This document shows, in pieces, positions 5,997 to 32,077 of a stretch of 36,469 bases of DNA. The DNA is from a virus. Lineage: Duplodnaviria > Heunggongvirae > Uroviricota > Caudoviricetes. Where the stretch lies: the IMG/VR virus record IMGVR_UViG_2724679138_000003; one strand, 5' to 3'. Under the pieces are notes generated by a model, which worked only from the letters and a program-made list of their open reading frames with translations, was not told the origin of the DNA and searched no databases. The translations under genes and the position numbers were made by a program. Numbering within the stretch: position 1 is the stretch's first letter; each line of letters starts with the position of its first letter.

Positions 5997-6326
5997 CTAT
6001 GCCACGACCTGTTCAAAATCTGCCGTTATGGTTACCCACAGCGCCCCCACGCTTGCCGACCATTTACGACAAACCACCCTGATCGGTTTCCAGTCATAAG
6101 GTGGCGTCCACTGAAATGCACGGACGCCACCGTGCCGTTCCAGAAAGGCTTTTAAAGATGGGTGTTCACATTTACGAACACGTATCGTCACGCTGTAAGT
6201 CGACAACTGGTTATTCAGTCCCGCCGCACGACGCTGTTCATAACCATCGCCCAGCTTCACTGTCACCACTTTCGGCTCTGATACCACATTCATATCCGGG
6301 CGCACTTTCCAGTGAAACGTCTCCAT
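5997..6326 (-). CDS. M: Minor tail protein M
   Basis: 109 aa lambda M-like (..KVRPDMNVVSEPKVVTVKLGDGYEQRRAAGLN..); start codon shares a base with the H stop. Confidence 0.85.
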   Translation of the reverse strand: METFHWKVRPDMNVVSEPKVVTVKLGDGYEQRRAAGLNNQLSTYSVTIRVRKCEHPSLKAFLERHGGVRAFQWTPPYDWKPIRVVCRKWSASVGALWVTITADFEQVVA

Positions 6327-9300
6327 TACCGATATGCTCCACTTAACCGACCACCATCACGGGCCTGCTGTTGCATAAAGTCCGCTGCCGCTTTTTTCCC
6401 GAGGTCATAAACCGCCTTCAGGGCAGCCGGACCTATCTGCCCGTTCGTGCCATCGTTATTGATCTCGATGTTGTACTGCGGGGAAAACATCGCCATACCT
6501 GAACCCCCAATATCCGCCACAACCCCCAGCTTACCGTCAGCACCACGACGCAATGGCAGAATGGCTTCAGGTCCCGCTTCCCCCATCACACCCGCGCCTT
6601 TTGCAAAAGCAAAAAACGTCGGACGGTTAACCACCGTGCCACTGTAACGACTCAAATCAGCAGACTGATAAATCCCCCCATTGGCATTCAGGGAAAGGCT
6701 GCTGAGATCAAATCCCAGTACACTGCCAATCCCTTTTATCGATTTCATCATGGTTGCCTGCGCCAGGATTTTCGCCATATCTGACAGCACAGAAGAGGTG
6801 AAGGATTTGAAATTGAGTTTGCCGGTAGTGACAAAAGTTGCCAGGCCATTTCCCATGTTGCTGAAGGCTGACGAGAACACCTGTTCTGCTGTTTCTGCCG
6901 TATTATCTGCATCCACGGTAAAATCCTGAAATGCACGCAGGACTCCGTTTTTCCAGTTACCCTGCACAACTTCAAGCTGTTGCCAGTAACGGCGATTCTC
7001 ATTCAGTTGTCGGTTCAGGCTCTCCGTCAGCGCCTGCTCGGCCTTTCTGTAGTCATCCGTGTTATATGTCCCTTTCTGCTCACTATCCCGCCTCAACTGC
7101 TCCAGCTGTTGCTGGTATTTCTGGCGAAGACTCAGTTGTACCTGATATCGCTGTCGCTGCTGATCACCCATACCCACCGTGGCGATATCCAGGTCATGTT
7201 GCTGACGCTGAGCGCGCTCTTCTTCAGCCAGTTGACTGGTCAGCTGAATTGTTTTTTTCTTCAGCTCGTTGAGTGCCGTCTGTTTCTGAAGCTCCTGCTG
7301 TTTTACATCCAGCAGCGTCAGTGCCTGAATCAGTTCATCTTTACGGGCCAGCACACTCTTTTCATCTGCCGTCAGTTTTTTCCCGTCCAGGTCGCTGATG
7401 CGCTGCTGCAGAGCCAGAAGCTGTTTATGCGCTTCTGTCATCCTTTCCGTGGCAATGCCTGCTGACTGTCTGGCAGCAGCAATCTGTCCTTCCACCTGTG
7501 CCTGTTGCTGACTGTACTGCAGCAATAACCGGGTGGCCTCATCATTACGGGTTTCGCGTGTTTTTTTCTTACCGGATGCCAGGGCTTTCTCGTAACGTTC
7601 ATTTTCACGTTGTATCGCCGCATCCCTGACAGCCTGATCGGCGTACTGCATGGCATTAATACGCGCAATTTCACGCTGATGTCGTGCAGCTTCCGTTTCA
7701 TTCATCCGGTTCAGTGCAGCATTTTCAGCATTACGGCGTTTCTGTTGCTCCTGATAATTCCGCTCTGCCTGCTCTTTTGCATCCTGCAAATCCTTCTGGC
7801 GTTTTTTCTCCTGAAGATCGTTAAGACGCTGCTGATCGTATTCAACCTGAGAAGATGATGCCGTCCAGGGGAGTCTTTTCGCCCGCGACACTTTCTCCTG
7901 TAAAGCGGCAATCTGTTCATCCAGCGAGTCTTCACGACCAATATTCATGGCCGCATCCCAGAAACGACTCCATAAATCAGACAGATACTTCAGCGTACTG
8001 CCCAGCGCATTGAGGTTATTATCAATATCCGCAGTACGCCGACCGGTTTCCTCTGCCAGTGCAGACATGGCTATCCGTGCAGCATCACTGGACCGCCCCT
8101 GATCCCCAAGGACGCGTATCTGCTCAAGCTGAGTGGCAGTAAGAAAATGCAGCTCATTGTCCAGAGCCTTCGCGGCATTTACAGGATCATCCTTCAGCCG
8201 CTTAAACTGATTTATGGTATCGCTGACCGACTGGCCAACCGATCGCTCCATCTGTGCGGCAGCTCTCGCCACCATACCGATATCGTTTCCACGAAATGCA
8301 CCACTCCCCACCACCTGAGCCAGCGCACCGGCTGCAGCATGTTGCGTAATACCATTCCCGGAAATAGCACGACTGAGCGTCCACAGCTGCCCGGCAGTGA
8401 CTCCGGCATAATGCCCCGTCAGCGACAACTGGCGGTTAAATTCTTCCCCCTCCTTCTGACCATCATACCAGGCTTTACCCAGACCATAGACGGCCGCGGC
8501 AATACCGCCAATAACCCCGCCCAGCATCATGCCTTTCGGTGACATCAGTGTGTCTATCCATCCGGCACGGTTAGCCAGCGTTATCCCGGATCCCCTCAGC
8601 GCACCTAAATTGCCGCGGGCCAGTTCACCTATCAGAACGCCTATCTCCTGGCGGGCCGCTGCACTTTTCAGACCCAGCGAATGCGTGGCTTTTCCTGCCT
8701 GCTCCATTTTGCGGATATACACTTCTGCAGCACTGCTTACCCCCAGCTGGGCAGCCTTAGCACGAAGCAACTCAGAAGAAGAAAGATTCTGGCGGGTTGC
8801 CTGCTCTTTAAGCTGACGGATAAACGCCACTTTCTGTCGGGTAGCCTCTTCCTCAGCCTGCGTAAGAACACGGGTTTTCGCCGTAACCTCAGAAATCAGC
8901 GCCAGATAATCCTGCTGACCAATCCCGCCACTGTTTCTGGCCTGTCGGATCTGCTGCTGAATACGCTGTAATTCCTGCAGCCCCGCACTGGCCTGTTTCA
9001 CACTGTCAATCTGACGATAAAACGCGGCAGCCGCTTTATCCTGAGCCTCCGCCAGAGCCATGGCCTGCGCCTGTTCCTCGCGCATTTTCTGGCTCAGTGC
9101 CTCCATACGCTGGCGGGTTTGCTCCACCTCGCGGGCCATGCGTTCATGAGCCTGTGCGCTCTTCTCCACCGTCTGCGCATGGACGGATGCGGCTGTTGCA
9201 GCCGAAGAAGCCGCCTGCATTGTCTGCCGGGCGGCCTGAGTCTGACGCTCCATAAAACGCTGCATACGGGCAGAAGACCGTTCTGCATCGCTGGCTGCAC

Positions 9301-24178: not shown

Positions 24179-24442
24179 TTATTCTTCTGCAAAAGCTGAA
24201 AAGCCTGCTTTTATTCCGATCTCTTTCAGTGCCTGTAATGAAGTGACAAACTCACCTTCGCGCAAGATAAATCCGTCTGTCACTCGACCATCCACAAAAT
24301 TAATTAACGCAGCCCCATTCTTTCGCAAACACATAATGCGGTAATGACTAACAAGATTTCCATTTTCAACGCACACAGCATAGAGGCCATCTTCACAAAA
24401 ATTTTTACGCAGTTCTTCGATGTTCATCATCATGTTCATCAT
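24179..24442 (-). CDS. Hypothetical protein (87 aa)
   Basis: ATG with GGAAGG SD; no recognizable motif. Confidence 0.45.
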   Translation of the reverse strand: MMNMMMNIEELRKNFCEDGLYAVCVENGNLVSHYRIMCLRKNGAALINFVDGRVTDGFILREGEFVTSLQALKEIGIKAGFSAFAEE

Positions 24443-24658: not shown

Positions 24659-24814
24659 TTACTCCTCAGGTTCGTAAGCTGTGAAGACAGCGACCTCCGT
24701 CTGGCCGGTTCGGATTCGTACCTCGCAAAGGTCTTTCCTCGTTACCAGTGCCGTCACTATGACGGTTAAACAGATGACGATCAGGGCGATTAACATCGCC
24801 TTTTGCTGCTTCAT
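24659..24814 (-). CDS. hokD: Hok/Gef-family type I toxin (HokD/RelF-like)
   Basis: 51 aa, MKQQKAMLIALIVICLTVIVTALVTRKDLCEVRIRTGQTEVAVFTAYEPEE: N-terminal TM helix and conserved Hok C-terminus; matches K-12 HokD as recalled. Confidence 0.85.
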   Translation of the reverse strand: MKQQKAMLIALIVICLTVIVTALVTRKDLCEVRIRTGQTEVAVFTAYEPEE

Positions 24815-25279
24815 AGCCTGCTTCTCCTTGCCTTTCGGCACGTAAGAGGCTAACCTACATGTGTCTAGCATGAAATTGGCCTCAGATTAATGTTAAGCGT
24901 CTTGCAGGACGCGTAATGTTAACTGGGGCTTTTCTCTATCTGCCGTTGGTGTTCATGCCCGAGGCAGATAGCCTCAAGCACCCGCAGTCATTCTACTTAA
25001 CTACCGTTACCTCGCCAATGTGAAATCAGTCAGAAAGGCGATCCATAAGAACAATAGCAAGACAATAAATCGCCATTACAGCCGTAATAGCCAGCGCACA
25101 TTTGAGAACCAGCACCACAACCTCCTGTATTGGACGTACACCAGTCCTGATGAATATGAGGCTGTCTCGTCAGTGATTCAATACAACTATTGGGTATAGT
25201 TTCTCTGATTTTTTCTGTGGAAATGGGGCTCAACCACTAGTCATTTAATACGCAAAGTCCGACACAAGCTAACCTTCTA

Positions 25280-29297: not shown

Positions 29298-29799
29298 AAT
29301 TCCATCCAGCTTTTTGTTGGTATTGCTGTCGATACGCAAGTTTGAAAGCAATTGCTTTTTCTATAAGTTCGTCAGTTTCACGATCCACTACGGCAGGATC
29401 AGCAAAAAGCAGTCCGGACTCCACCACATCGCCATATTCTTTGTTTAACCCGGCGATCATGTACGTGATGCTTTTTCCGTCACTAATTTCACGATACAAC
29501 CTGAAATCATTAATCCGGATAGCCTCCATAATTGCAGGCACTAGCGCCGTGAACTTTTCACGCTTATCCCTAGTGTCGATAGCCTTCCAGCGTTCGAATA
29601 TCTTCACTCGATTAACGCCAAGCGCTCGCTGATCAACCGCGCCACCTTCATCTGTGACACGCTGAACATCGATGTTCGGGCGCTCTTTCAAAGCCCAGAA
29701 TGCTTCAGTGATTAATATCGTCGCCTGCTCCTGTGTCATTCCTGGTCGACATATCCAGGCATCCAGAGCCTCACGAGCCTGTTCAGGAGTGATTTTCAT
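29278..29799 (-). CDS. Early-region protein between Cro-like gene and replication initiator (possible CII/YdaT-like regulator)
   Basis: 173-aa ORF overlapping the DicC-like 3' end by 17 nt; function not recognizable from sequence. Confidence 0.45.
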   Translation of the reverse strand: MKITPEQAREALDAWICRPGMTQEQATILITEAFWALKERPNIDVQRVTDEGGAVDQRALGVNRVKIFERWKAIDTRDKREKFTALVPAIMEAIRINDFRLYREISDGKSITYMIAGLNKEYGDVVESGLLFADPAVVDRETDELIEKAIAFKLAYRQQYQQKAGWNYEPSFC

Positions 29800-30010
29800 T
29801 GTTCAACCGCCCCGCCCGCTTCGTCTTACGATATTCGTCATAAACCTTGGGATCATACAGAAGCTCGCCGCCAGATGCCTCCTGTAGACGCATCGCGCGA
29901 CCTTCAGGAACCAGCTCTTGCCATTGAGAAACAGCAGATGGGTCAACGCCAGCAGCTTTCGCTACTTTGGCTTTCGTACCGTAAAAATTAATTACGTCTG
30001 ATTTAAACAT
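29783..30010 (-). CDS. dicC: Cro-like regulator (DicC-like)
   Basis: About 75 aa from ATG 30010 (GGAGG 4 nt upstream): MFKSDVINFYGTKAKVAKAAGVDPSAVSQW... (HTH); divergent from the DicA-like repressor. Confidence 0.65.
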   Translation of the reverse strand: MFKSDVINFYGTKAKVAKAAGVDPSAVSQWQELVPEGRAMRLQEASGGELLYDPKVYDEYRKTKRAGRLNNENHS

Positions 30011-30087
30011 CGCACCTCCAATATTGAGTTTTCTCAATGCTAATCACTCAAGGAATCTCAAGTCAAGGGTTATTAAGATATCTAAAT
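30011..30087. promoter_or_regulatory. Divergent promoter/operator region between dicC-like and dicA-like genes
   Basis: 77-bp intergenic spacer containing the palindrome TTGAGTTTTCTCAA (30024-30037) and CTCAAGGAATCTCAAG. Confidence 0.5.
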
Positions 30088-30495
30088 ATGAACGAGAAAA
30101 CTTTAGGTCAACGCATTAGAGAAAGACGTAAGCAGGTAGGCTTAAGTCAAAACGGTTTAAGCAAAGCTGCTGGCGTATCTGGCTCATCAATTTCATTATG
30201 GGAAAGTGACCATACAGCCCCGCGCGGGCAAAATTTGCATCGCCTCGCCGAGGTATTGCAATGTTCACCAACCTGGATACTGTTTGGCGACGAGGACAAA
30301 ACACCAGCTCCCCCTGTTTCACTCGATAGTGCCTTAGACTTATCGGAAGATGAGTTAGAGATGCTGCGTTTGTATCGCGCACTTCCTAAATCAGAGCAAC
30401 AAGCACAACTCAGCGAACTCCGCGCCCGCGTTGAGAATTTTAATCGCCTGTTCACCGAGCTATTAGAGGCTCGCAAACGCAACAAGCATCAATAA
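30088..30495 (+). CDS. dicA: Prophage repressor (DicA-like, HTH_XRE)
   Basis: 135 aa, MNEKTLGQRIRERRKQVGLSQNGLSKAAGVSGSSISLWE... (XRE HTH); gene order dicC-dicA-ydfA...dicF-dicB as in K-12 Qin. Confidence 0.75.
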   Translation: MNEKTLGQRIRERRKQVGLSQNGLSKAAGVSGSSISLWESDHTAPRGQNLHRLAEVLQCSPTWILFGDEDKTPAPPVSLDSALDLSEDELEMLRLYRALPKSEQQAQLSELRARVENFNRLFTELLEARKRNKHQ

Positions 30496-30554
30496 TCATC
30501 CCTTCACAAAATTTTAAAGCCTTACATTTCAATGTATTGGCTTTATCTTGCGCC

Positions 30555-30615
30555 AATACTTGAGTTTTCTCATCAAAAAACCTTGACGAAAAATAATGAG
30601 AAAACTAAATTACTT
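30555..30615 (+). promoter_or_regulatory. Promoter and operators of the ydfA-dicF-dicB operon
   Basis: TTGACG (30583-30588), 17-bp spacer, TAAATT (30606-30611); operator-like TGAGTTTTCTCA at 30561-30572 and inverted copy TGAGAAAACTAA at 30597-30608. Confidence 0.5.
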
Positions 30616-30687
30616 CCATCAAGACACCGCACGGTGTTCTCAGCAAACAGTTCCGCTACCCCGGCGTTAAGGGGAAATGAGGTCAGC

Positions 30688-30840
30688 ATGGATACTATCG
30701 ATCTTGGCAACAGCGAATCTCTGGTATGTGGCGTGTTCCCCAACCAGGACGGTACGTTCACCGCGATGACATATACCAAAAGCAAAACGTTTAAAACCGA
30801 ATCTGGCGCGCGTTGCTGGTTAGCCAGAAACACTGACTGA
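30688..30840 (+). CDS. ydfA: YdfA-like small protein (DUF1391)
   Basis: 50 aa, MDTIDLGNSESLVCGVFPNQDGTFTAMTYTKSKTFKTESGARCWLARNTD; GAGG SD; first gene of dicB operon. Confidence 0.65.
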   Translation: MDTIDLGNSESLVCGVFPNQDGTFTAMTYTKSKTFKTESGARCWLARNTD

Positions 30841-31661: not shown

Positions 31662-31719
31662 TTTCTGGTGACGTTTGGCGGTATCAGTTTTACTCCGTGA
31701 CTGCTCTGCCGCCGTTTTT
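31662..31719 (+). ncRNA. dicF: DicF small regulatory RNA
   Basis: TTTCTGGTGACGTTTGGCGGTATCAGTTTTACTCCGTGACTGCTCTGCCGCCG followed by TTTTT; matches the K-12 DicF sequence as recalled (one mismatch at the 3' end); sits between ydfC-position gene and dicB. Confidence 0.8.
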
Positions 31720-31888: not shown

Positions 31889-32077
31889 ATGAAAACGTTA
31901 TTACCAAACGTTAATACGTCTGAAGGTTGTTTTGAAATTGGTGTCACTATCAGTAACCCTGTATTTACTGAAGATGCCATTAACAAGAGAAAACAAGAAC
32001 GGGAGCTATTAAATAAAATATGCATTGTTTCAATGCTGGCTCGTTTACGTCTGATGCCAAAAGGATGTACACAATGA
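31889..32077 (+). CDS. dicB: Cell division inhibitor DicB
   Basis: 62 aa, MKTLLPNVNTSEGCFEIGVTISNPVFTEDAINKRKQERELLNKICIVSMLARLRLMPKGCTQ; GAGGA SD. Confidence 0.85.
   Translation: MKTLLPNVNTSEGCFEIGVTISNPVFTEDAINKRKQERELLNKICIVSMLARLRLMPKGCTQ

Follow-up and report, generated by a model that had tools for sequence, protein, structure and literature searches.

The repressor gene of a Caudoviricetes element (IMG/VR record IMGVR_UViG_2724679138_000003; the whole 36,469-nucleotide stretch is called the window here) is surrounded by copies of a TGAG-N4-CTCA palindrome. The question this raises is whether these are the operators through which the repressor controls both a cro-like gene and a dicB operon, as a sequence-only reading had proposed, and to which immunity system they belong. 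Our comparisons make it highly probable that they serve as operators in the P22/DicA-type immunity region of an mEp460-like lambdoid prophage, a heteroimmune version of a known kind.

Gene content of the immunity region

The genes concerned are the following.

29783–30010, minus strand: dicC-like cro gene, 75 aa, P22_Cro family (PF14549, E = 3e-16), WP_000476993.1
30088–30495, plus strand: dicA-like repressor gene, 135 aa, HTH_3 (E = 2e-15), WP_001003381.1
30688–30840, plus strand: ydfA-like gene (DUF1391; PF07151, E = 4e-27), first in the putatively controlled operon
31663–31714, plus strand: DicF small RNA, within that operon (Rfam RF00039, 72.5 bits, E = 3e-14)
31889–32077, plus strand: dicB cell-division inhibitor gene, within that operon (RefSeq annotation, locus L002)
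24182–24430, minus strand: rem-like antirepressor gene (tblastn, 95% identity to K-12 Rem, 83 aa, E = 3e-50)

The gene assignments made earlier, from the dicC-like and dicA-like genes through the ydfA-like gene to DicF RNA and dicB, hold. The dicB coordinates come from a RefSeq locus that is 100% identical to the window (L002, positions 6190–6378, offset 25699), in which ydfD is annotated alongside dicB. In the ydfA leader, the predicted hairpins are conserved, with compensatory changes almost absent.

The dicC-like and dicA-like genes are divergent, with a 77-bp spacer between their ATGs at 30010 (minus strand) and 30088 (plus strand). The dicC-like product is 70% identical to K-12 DicC and matches the P22 Cro structure 1RZS (E = 2e-12), while the dicA-like product is 57% identical to K-12 DicA; the C-terminal parts are nearly identical to those of the K-12 DicA/DicC homologues. 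The N-terminal domain of the repressor is of the P22 c2 type (PDB 1ADR and 2R1J, E about 1e-15), and its recognition helix reads SGSSISLWES. A 152-aa form starting at 30037 was dropped for the annotated 135-aa form. Helix-turn-helix families are the sole family matches for this 135-aa protein, with no S24 peptidase domain, and the repressor is therefore of the antirepressor-controlled DicA subtype rather than the classical RecA-cleaved lambda/P22 type (PMC10448788). By analogy with K-12, derepression probably goes by way of the Rem-like antirepressor.

The element in the window matches a functional temperate phage, mEp460_ev081, in contrast to the defective Qin prophage of K-12 (PMC10448788). 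At least 80% of the 1301-bp query is found in 766 of 5,426 complete E. coli genomes, and the immunity type also occurs in relatives from at least nine other enterobacterial genera.

Operator-like sites and their promoters

Five operator-like sites are recognised, of which A, D and E are strong and B and C weak, together with two promoters.

30024–30037, unstranded: site A, predicted operator (OR1-like), perfect palindrome TTGAGTTTTCTCAA
30048–30061, unstranded: site B, weak (OR2-like), TCAAGGAATCTCAA, one of its half-sites (TTGAG, read on the minus strand) fitting the consensus
30073–30086, unstranded: site C, weak (OR3-like), TTAAGATATCTAAA, with P22-like half-sites (family D2, inverted repeat I8)
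30560–30573, unstranded: site D, predicted operator (OL2-like), TTGAGTTTTCTCAT, both half-sites fitting the consensus
30596–30609, unstranded: site E, predicted operator (OL1-like), ATGAGAAAACTAAA
30037–30066, minus strand: predicted PR-like promoter of the dicC-like gene, TTGACT-18-TAGCAT (consensus scan only)
30583–30611, plus strand: predicted PL-like promoter, the dicBp equivalent, TTGACG-17-TAAATT (consensus scan)

All three palindromes originally described around the repressor gene are present. The coordinates given for the two later copies are exact (TGAGTTTTCTCA at 30561–30572 and TGAGAAAACTAA at 30597–30608), and the start given for the spacer copy, 30011, marks where the 77-bp spacer begins, TTGAGTTTTCTCAA itself being at 30024–30037. 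The weaker spacer sites B and C, and the homology to the P22 OR/OL layout, had been missed in that reading.

The consensus scan found only two sigma-70-like promoters in 29900–30800, and they are the ones under sites A and E. Transcripts are predicted to start at about 30030 on the minus strand (dicC-like), about 30088 (dicA-like, leaderless) and about 30618 (ydfA). Counted from the predicted start of the dicC-like promoter, which it covers, site A runs from about -7 to +7, in the position that Oc holds in K-12. Site B lies inside the spacer of the same promoter, 24 bp from site A, and site C follows 25 bp further on, ending 1 bp before the dicA-like ATG; sites A, B and C form a putative three-operator array with 24- and 25-bp spacing that is colinear with P22 OR1–OR3. 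Site B by itself has no statistical significance. It is colinear with P22 OR2 (ACTAAAGGAATCTTTAGT), with the block CAAGGAAnCTCA kept across genera. Site C resembles P22 OR3 and is kept even in loci L008 and L009, which have other repressor helices.

The TTGACG-17bp-TAAATT promoter reported upstream of ydfA was found at 30583–30611. Both later palindromes had been said to overlap it, which holds for site E and not for site D. Site E lies at about -22 to -9, in the promoter spacer and reaching 4 nt into the -10 hexamer, which degrades its outer half-site to TTAG; it occupies the same place as K-12 TGTTAGTCATGGCTAATC and P22 AATTAAGAAGTCTTAAAT. Site D, the homologue of P22 ATTTAAGTTTTCTTCAAA, lies at about -58 to -45, ending 10 bp upstream of the -35 and touching no hexamer. 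The two are 36 bp apart in the window and 34–36 bp apart in the loci examined, and the window, K-12 and P22 all lack the third site between them that a lambda-like OL2 would require. We also note that a spacing of 34–36 bp does not put D and E on the same helix face, with D off the promoter hexamers. Terminators or RNA hairpins were considered for the palindromes and set aside: 29900–30800 has no terminator-like site, and the stems are too short.

The recurrence of the motif in the window depends on how it is defined. The generic TGAG-N4-CTCA pattern under which the repeats were first noticed is not significant there (2 against 0.61 expected, with two or more in 12 of 100 shuffles), whereas the 14-mer with up to 2 mismatches has 3 matches in 36.5 kb against 0.35 expected. 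These matches are sites A, D and E only, and none of 100 dinucleotide shuffles reached three. With 3 mismatches allowed the count equals expectation. The signal therefore lies in the shared TTTT centre and in the placement of the sites, as the generic pattern is not significant by itself. The exact 13-mer TTGAGTTTTCTCA is found twice, 536 bp apart (family D7). A weight matrix trained solely on orthologous sites of other genera likewise ranks sites A, D and E as its top three in the window, at 27.6 (site A), 25.2 and 22.5 bits, followed by site C at 14.7 bits; the best match in each of 30 shuffles averaged 12.3, with a maximum of 19.5. This matrix and the search with up to 2 mismatches are the only discriminating searches. 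In IMG/VR the exact 14-mer has at least 120 matches, almost all in unrelated environmental contigs, and a DicA-type gene adjoins 5 of them among the matches listed. A 14-mer is expected to recur this often by chance in so large a body of DNA, and the scan is accordingly silent on specificity.

Conservation and relation to known immunity systems

Repressors 68–76% identical to that of the window are found in ten further loci from nine other genera (two in Buttiauxella, two in Klebsiella and one each in Salmonella, Scandinavium, Kluyvera, Enterobacter, Citrobacter koseri and Yokenella). A scan of genome contigs with the DicA alignment gave 16 loci, those of other genera being fetched protein by protein; the same scan of viral contigs returned 80 near-identical E. 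coli prophage copies with minor variants only. The ten loci share the helix type S[GDEN]S[ST][IV]SLWE[SG], and in all ten xTGAGTTTTCTCAA is kept at -64 from the repressor ATG (-62 in C. koseri). The 13-nt core of site A is unchanged in 12 sequences from 10 genera including E. coli. Sites D and E are kept 34–36 bp apart in nine of the ten loci, flanking the TTGAC -35, which is itself conserved at 0.92; in the remaining locus, from K. michiganensis (L105), site A is kept and the downstream region is unrelated, without D and E. Across 11 sequences, mean column conservation is 0.98 in site D and 0.96 in site E, against 0.53–0.60 in the adjacent spacers. Between site A and the dicA-like ATG the spacer is largely conserved across genera, including sites B and C and the predicted dicC-like -35 (GTCAAG on the plus strand), which is unchanged. 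In this stretch, therefore, the degree of conservation cannot tell operators and promoter elements apart.

Seven other immunity types have different palindromes at the same positions, and within each locus the OR-side and OL-side copies match. Their palindromes are as follows.

K-12 Qin and L014: GTTAGT-N4-ACTAAC
L017 and L016: GTTAGA type
L008 and L009: GTTGAG type (TTGTTGAG type)
PPompW: CTTAG-N4-CTAAG
P22: TTAAG-N4-CTTAA

Each immunity type thus has an operator sequence of its own, which varies in step with the recognition helix of the repressor.

The nearest described system is the dicA-dicC-dicBp region of the cryptic prophage Qin (Kim) of K-12, whose operators are Oc, Om and Oa together with those of dicBp (Bejar et al. 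1988, cited in PMC3441716 and PMC10448788). DicA binds Oc, which overlaps the dicC -10, in vivo, and no longer does so once a single base of Oc is changed; the site is needed for dicC repression and for dicA activation or expression, while Om and Oa gave no DicA binding in the in vivo assay (PMC3441716). The start of the K-12 dicC promoter was mapped by 5'RACE (PMC3441716), and dicBp is the DicA-repressed operon promoter, whose repression is relieved by Rem; bistability has been described for DicA/DicC (PMC10448788). The window shares with Qin the gene order ydaT-like, dicC, dicA, ydfA, dicF, dicB, the 135-aa length of DicA and the level of protein identity given above. Also shared are a strong palindrome on the dicC -10/+1, 20–25 bp from the dicC ATG, two more sites at intervals of about 25 bp, the last abutting the dicA ATG, and two sites 35–36 bp apart that flank the -35 of the leftward promoter, with nearly identical sequence downstream of the -10.

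Within this common layout the specificity differs: the operator core is TGAGTTTTCTCA in the window and TTGTTAGTCATAACTAACAA in K-12 Oc, the half-site is (T)TGAG rather than TGTTAGT, and the recognition helix is SGSSISLWES where K-12 DicA has SHVSVSQWER. As both half-sites and helices differ, the window element and K-12 Qin are predicted to be heteroimmune. The window has the features of a Qin-type DicA/DicC/dicBF module except the operator sequence and immunity of K-12 Oc.

The closest solved structures, those of the c2 N-terminal domain and Cro, belong to P22 immC (c2, Cro, OR1–3, OL1–3). P22 OR is colinear with the window spacer: OR2 ACTAAAGGAATCTTTAGTCAAG corresponds to ACTCAAGGAATCTCAAGTCAAG, and OR3 abuts the ATG in both. 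P22 PL has the same layout as the leftward promoter of the window, with TTGACC/TAAATT, an operator on the -10 and another 35 bp upstream with a TTTT centre. Within an 18-bp site, P22 repressor contacts positions 2–7 and 12–17, and it senses the central 4 bp by indirect readout with a preference for A/T-rich centres (PMC4267663); its sites are dyads with a 4-bp uncontacted centre (PMC4267663), as predicted for those of the window. The half-sites differ: P22 has TTAAG or TAAAG where the strong sites of the window have TTGAG. So do the proteins, since P22 c2 has 216 aa and a RecA-cleavable C-terminal domain, whereas the C-terminal half of the 135-aa window repressor is unrelated (PMC10448788). 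Downstream of the promoter the window has ydfA and neither an N gene nor nutL, while a boxB is visible in P22. Judged by sequence, the locus has what characterises P22-type immunity operators, namely a divergent gene pair, the protein families, repeated dyads, promoter overlap and an operator sequence that tracks the helix.

The CI/Cro switch of lambda is built on tripartite OR and OL operators. The window resembles it in the divergent repressor/cro pair, three spacer sites 23–25 bp apart and operators on both early promoters. Neither its protein families nor its operator sequences are related to those of lambda, its repressor lacks an S24 domain, and at its leftward promoter a pair of sites 36 bp apart takes the place of three close together. 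Gifsy-type repressors controlled by antirepressors (GfoR and GfhR, with GfoA and related proteins) are likewise short and uncleavable, with an antirepressor on the same prophage (PMC10448788), as the Rem-like protein is in the window; the repressor family and the operators are different.

A predicted switch and its alternatives

Repressor control of both the cro-like gene and the dicB operon, as first proposed, is supported by the position of the palindromes on the only two sigma-70-like promoters, and by footprints that are kept in nine other genera and change with the repressor helix in heteroimmune relatives. It is further supported by K-12, where DicA binds the equivalent Oc and represses dicBp (PMC3441716, PMC10448788). 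The TGAG-TTTT-CTCA palindromes are almost certainly repressor sites, predicted to shut off the cro-like gene and the dicF/dicB operon. The 135-aa DicA-like protein would bind as a dimer, reading (T)TGAG half-sites on either side of a TTTT centre that it does not contact. Occupation of site A, at the start and -10 of the rightward early promoter, would block dicC and the ydaT and replication genes behind it, and by analogy with K-12 Oc would probably also stimulate the weak dicA promoter. Occupation of site E would cover the spacer and -10 of the leftward early promoter, perhaps with help from site D 36 bp upstream, and the two together would shut off ydfA-dicF-dicB along with the genes for exonuclease, excisionase and integrase further downstream. 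Sites B and C would be weaker P22-like sites that complete an OR1-OR2-OR3-type array, site C, abutting the dicA start codon, being the likely place where the Cro-like DicC turns dicA off. As the repressor has no RecA-cleavable domain, induction would presumably depend on the Rem-like antirepressor, whose gene lies 5.6 kb away.

Because Oc alone was bound in the K-12 assay (PMC3441716), it may be that the repressor does not use B and C at all. A related possibility, which we hold only tentatively, is that the five sites form two sequence classes rather than one lambda-like graded series for two proteins. The repressor class, with TGAG half-sites, might then take in all of A and D and one half each of B and E. 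The other class, P22-like and with TAAG or TTAG half-sites, could consist of C and the remaining halves of B and E, that of E being the one by the -10, and might be read mainly by the Cro-like DicC. This arrangement is suggested by the DicC helix PSAVSQW, which is close to AAVSQW of P22 Cro, by the retention of site C, with its resemblance to P22 OR3, in L008 and L009 despite their other helices and operators, and by the binding of K-12 DicA to Oc and not to Om or Oa. If it is true, the repressor lineage would have altered its specificity by a single base in each half-site, from TAAG to TGAG, with Cro retaining the ancestral one, and repressor and Cro would have largely separate operators in one switch.

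Three other explanations depart further from repressor control. The strong palindromes could be targets of the Cro-like DicC only, or of some other phage regulator, with the DicA-like repressor acting elsewhere; sequence alone cannot assign sites between two divergently encoded helix-turn-helix proteins, the N-terminal helix-turn-helix of DicC also differs between the window and K-12, and DPSAVSQW is kept in all loci with TGAG sites, so that this helix tracks the operators no less closely than the repressor helix does. Yet in L008 and L009 the Cro helix is almost unchanged, [DE]RSAVSQW, and the strong palindromes are different (TTGTTGAG type) and track the repressor helices of those loci, which differ too. 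Since repressor and Cro share operators in P22 and lambda, and K-12 DicA binds the equivalent Oc and represses dicC as well as dicBp (PMC3441716, PMC10448788), we consider this explanation quite unlikely.

That the palindromes are small RNA hairpins or sites for a host nucleoid protein (IHF, Fis, H-NS) seems highly improbable. The region is AT-rich with an IHF-like core nearby (30527–30539), H-NS/Cnu affect dicA control in K-12, and silencing involving Fis and Hfq has been reported (PMC3441716, PMC10448788), but a stem would have only 4–5 bp around its 4-nt loop, transcripts from dicBp would not include D and E, which precede the predicted start, and host-factor sites would not vary with a phage repressor helix. 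We give almost no credence to the repeats being a by-product of shared OL/OR ancestry or duplication, or an AT-rich chance, with no present regulatory role. The lack of enrichment of the generic pattern, the 3-mismatch count at expectation and the common chance occurrence of the exact 14-mer in unrelated viral contigs would fit such an origin. Against it stand the shuffles, none of which gave three matches at up to 2 mismatches, the 12–13-nt cores that are invariant or nearly so in 10 genera while neighbouring bases vary, and the location of the sites on promoter elements, with each heteroimmune type having its own palindrome at the same positions.

Searches of the literature with the exact operator motif returned irrelevant primer matches only, and a description of the operator is absent from the mEp460 papers found. 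The locus is almost certainly an ordinary lambdoid immunity switch whose operator sequence has not yet been described, and it reveals no new mechanism. What it provides is a predicted operator, xTGAG-TTTT-CTCAx, and a site map for a widespread immunity type that would control the cell-division inhibitors DicF and DicB. The map may be used in annotating such prophages, in predicting heteroimmunity against Qin-type elements and in designing reporter and derepression experiments. The natural pairs of helix and operator (TGAG, TTAGT, TTGAG with a TTGT arm, CTTAG and TTAAG) also form a small ready data set that bears on how specificity changes within the P22 c2 fold.

Operator-like sites of the immunity region

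Between 29.7 and 31.0 kb, the window shows 100% identity to Escherichia phage mEp460_ev081, a functional temperate phage with dicB, dicF, dicAC and rem (PMC10448788), and to prophages of many E. coli genomes; 766 of 5,426 complete E. coli genomes carry at least 80% of the 1301-bp immunity-region query. The two divergent regulators are assigned by Pfam to P22_Cro (minus strand) and HTH_3 (plus strand). They are 70% identical to DicC and 57% identical to DicA of the K-12 prophage Qin, with the differences clustered in the helix-turn-helix parts, and among solved structures the nearest are P22 Cro (1RZS) for the former and, for the latter, the P22 c2 N-terminal domain (1ADR, 2R1J, 3JXB).

Features of the immunity region (genes from the annotation of identical records, converted to window numbering)
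29783-30010, minus, Cro/CI-family gene (dicC-like)
30024-30037, site A, TTGAGTTTTCTCAA, in the 77-bp dicC-like/dicA-like spacer
30066-30037, minus, promoter-like TTGACT-18-TAGCAT (consensus scan)
30048-30061, site B, TCAAGGAATCTCAA (centre-free search)
30073-30086, site C, TTAAGATATCTAAA (centre-free search; repeat family D2, palindrome I8)
30088-30495, plus, helix-turn-helix gene, 135 aa (dicA-like)
30560-30573, site D, TTGAGTTTTCTCAT
30583-30611, plus, promoter-like TTGACG-17-TAAATT (consensus scan)
30596-30609, site E, ATGAGAAAACTAAA
30688-30840, DUF1391 gene (ydfA-like)
31663-31714, DicF RNA (Rfam, 72.5 bits)
31889-32077, dicB

Allowing at most two mismatches to the 14-mer, sites A, D and E are the sole matches in 36,469 bp (0.35 expected), and none of 100 dinucleotide shuffles reaches three. 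The generic TGAG-N4-CTCA pattern by itself is not enriched in the window; the signal therefore lies in the identical 13-mer, including its TTTT centre, and in the placement of the copies. A weight matrix trained solely on orthologous sites from other genera also ranks A, D and E as the top three in the window (27.6, 25.2 and 22.5 bits; next match 14.7), and its best score in 30 shuffles is at most 19.5 bits.

The consensus scan of 29900-30800 returns exactly two promoter-like sites. Site A spans roughly -7 to +7 of the predicted minus-strand promoter and site E about -22 to -9 of the predicted plus-strand promoter, with site D at about -58 to -45 of the latter. The sequence-only reading had placed one copy in the divergent spacer, where site A indeed lies, and two copies over TTGACG-17-TAAATT; this holds for E, whereas D ends 10 bp ahead of the -35. 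Its interpretation of these copies as repressor control, the textbook one, is supported.

Covariation of the palindromes with the recognition helix

A protein search returned many relatives (133-135 aa) of the dicA-like repressor, and those with helix type S[GDEN]S[ST][IV]SLWE[SG] were traced to their contigs for comparison. The ten loci come from Buttiauxella ferragutiae, B. gaviniae, Salmonella, Scandinavium, Kluyvera, Enterobacter, Citrobacter koseri, Klebsiella michiganensis, K. pneumoniae and Yokenella, with repressors 68-76% identical to the dicA-like one. All ten keep xTGAGTTTTCTCAA at -64 from the repressor ATG (-62 in C. koseri). Nine retain xTGAGTTTTCT[CA]A directly 5' of a TTGAC -35 and, 34-36 bp downstream of this palindrome, xTGAG[A/T]4CTAA over the -10; in the K. 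michiganensis locus the downstream region is unrelated. In the spacer alignment, 13 columns (TGAGTTTTCTCAA) are invariant, and the 20 nt cro-ward and the A-B stretch are variable. Mean column conservation in the downstream alignment is 0.98 in the D core, 0.96 in the E core and 0.92 in the -35, versus 0.60 and 0.53 in the two intervening stretches.

Where the recognition helix differs, the corresponding positions hold a different palindrome, and within each locus the cro-side copy matches those at the leftward promoter.

Recognition helices and strong palindromes of other immunity types
K-12 Qin and Citrobacter sp., SHVSVSQWER, GTTAGT-N4-ACTAAC
Rosenbergiella and Yersinia, SHVTISQWE[TS], GTTAGA-type
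C. braakii and Superficieibacter, SHATISLWES and SYASISLWES, TTGTTGAG-N4-CTxAACAA
PPompW phages, AHVTISQWER, CCTTAG-ATTTTC-CTAAGG type
P22, SNVAISQWER, TTAAG or TAAAG-N4-CTTAA

Colinearity with the window extends to the P22 region, taken from a phage with identical c2: OR1 is ATTAAAGAACACTTAAAT, OR2 is ACTAAAGGAATCTTTAGT with the window's CAAG after it, and OR3 (ATTTAAGATGACTTAACT) adjoins the ATG. On its leftward side, a TTGACC...TAAATT promoter carries AATTAAGAAGTCTTAAAT over the -10 and, 35 bp upstream, ATTTAAGTTTTCTTCAAA. K-12 likewise has two sites 35 bp apart, around TTGACC-17-TAATCT, and is almost identical to the window from just past the -10, which marks the immunity module as a mosaic cassette whose flanks are conserved. 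The PPompW immunity type, as read from phage PPompW_132418 (positions 911-1600 of locus L231; helix AHVTISQWER), shares this layout: CCTTAGATTTTCCTAAGG stands beside dicC, the leftward promoter has CTTAGGTTTTTCTACA and CTTAGGCTATTCTAAA, and the centre is again T-rich.

In vivo, K-12 DicA binds Oc (TTGTTAGTCATAACTAACAA), an interaction destroyed by one A-to-C change; the dicC promoter, which has a mapped start, overlaps Oc with its -10, dicA expression needs Oc-bound DicA, and Om and Oa showed no DicA binding in the assay that detected Oc binding (PMC3441716). The P22 repressor, which has six operators, makes contacts at positions 2-7 and 12-17; it reads the middle four base pairs indirectly and favours A/T-rich centres, whose minor groove is narrow (PMC4267663). 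By analogy, such indirect recognition would suit the TTTT centre that is invariant in the strong sites.

Chance similarity or inert duplication of the sites is excluded by the shuffles, the 13 spacer columns invariant across genera, the contrast between the D and E cores and the sequence between them, and the ranking by the other-genera matrix. Binding of the strong palindromes by the Cro-like protein only is disfavoured, because two relatives with GTTGAG-type palindromes (L008 and L009) differ little in the Cro helix yet have different strong palindromes, which track the repressor helices, and because the K-12 data count against it. RNA hairpins or host-protein sites would leave the change with the phage repressor helix unexplained, and the consensus scan found no terminator-like structure. 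The comparison shows where the sites lie, that they are conserved and that they change with the helix; repressor binding, the match of proteins to sites and the transcription starts are inferred.

Weak sites and the proposed switch

Sites B and C were found by leaving the palindrome centre free. The centres of A, B and C (30030.5, 30054.5 and 30079.5) are spaced 24 and 25 bp apart, and C ends one base ahead of the repressor ATG. Neither is significant individually: C, with TAAG and TTAG in place of consensus half-sites, is fourth-best in the window by weight matrix, and B, with a single consensus half-site (TTGAG, minus strand), falls outside the top 15. Their regular spacing and homology to P22 nevertheless make them credible weak operators. 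That weak sites track Cro type rather than repressor type, possibly a new point, is a doubtful reading based on few independent lineages and the binding of K-12 DicA to Oc only.

Repressor dimers on A would occlude the rightward early (PR-like) promoter of the dicC-like gene, and those on E the leftward early (PL-like) promoter of ydfA. Site D, with two consensus half-sites, probably boosts occupancy of E or blocks upstream RNA polymerase contacts, and B and C would complete an OR-like array. Site C, which covers the probable dicA -10 and transcription start, would be a natural place for dicA shut-off by the Cro-like protein. No dicA promoter passes the consensus scan, as also reported for K-12. 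The dicA-like ATG (30088) lacks a Shine-Dalgarno sequence. TAAGAT (30075-30080), inside site C, would put the transcription start at or next to this ATG, suggesting a PRM-like transcript without a leader; the TAAGAT...ATG arrangement recurs in P22. The frame 5' of the ATG is open back to an ATG at 30037, likewise in several other genera, so gene callers give 150-153-aa forms (P0003, P0004, P0018, P0037); this extension is probably a by-product of conserved operator DNA and not genuine.

Derepression would probably proceed via the Rem-like protein (24182-24430). In K-12, DicA represses dicBp and the Rem antirepressor relieves this repression; DicA lacks a RecA cleavage site, and the DicA-DicC pair acts as a bistable switch (PMC10448788).

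Flanking elements and natural operator variants

Features around rem
24182-24430, minus, rem-like antirepressor gene, product 95% identical to K-12 Rem
24659-24871, minus, hok/mok-type toxin ORF, product including MKQQKAMLIALIVICLTVIVTALVTRKDLCEVRIRTGQTEVAVFTAYEPEE
24809-24983, sok antitoxin match (Rfam RF01794, 115 bits), adjoining rem

The hok-rem order equals the hokD-rem order of Qin. The high identity of Rem, despite a strongly diverged repressor DNA-binding domain, suggests from sequence comparison that Rem may target the conserved C-terminal half of DicA-type repressors, not the helix-turn-helix domain.

Directly 3' of the dicA stop codon, palindrome TTACATTTCAATGTAT could be a weak terminator. 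It includes TTTCAATGTATTG (30527-30539), which is close to the IHF core consensus WATCAANNNNTTR; this stretch, about 85 bp 5' of the start predicted for dicBp, shows conservation across genera, and the Kluyvera and Enterobacter loci have exactly ATCAAnnnnTTG. The ydfA leader (30620-30680) contains two conserved hairpins, ACACC-GCAC-GGTGT (30624-30637; AATCAC...GTGATT in other genera) and CCCC-GGCGTTAA-GGGG (about 30661-30677; GCC...GGC in some loci). RNAalifold recovers both, almost without compensatory changes, and neither matches an Rfam family.

Descriptions of the operator layout in Qin and P22 go back decades. For this TGAG-TTTT-CTCA immunity type, the operator sequence itself appears to be new; a search of the available literature, which omits much older work, did not return it. 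Four IMG/VR E. coli prophage variants of this type (L093, L094, L096 and L098) carry single changes within operators, with TTGAGCTTTCTCAT or TTGAGTTTTATCAT at site D and ATGATAAAACTAAA at site E. Such variants could supply operator mutants ready for use, or may be signs of prophage decay.
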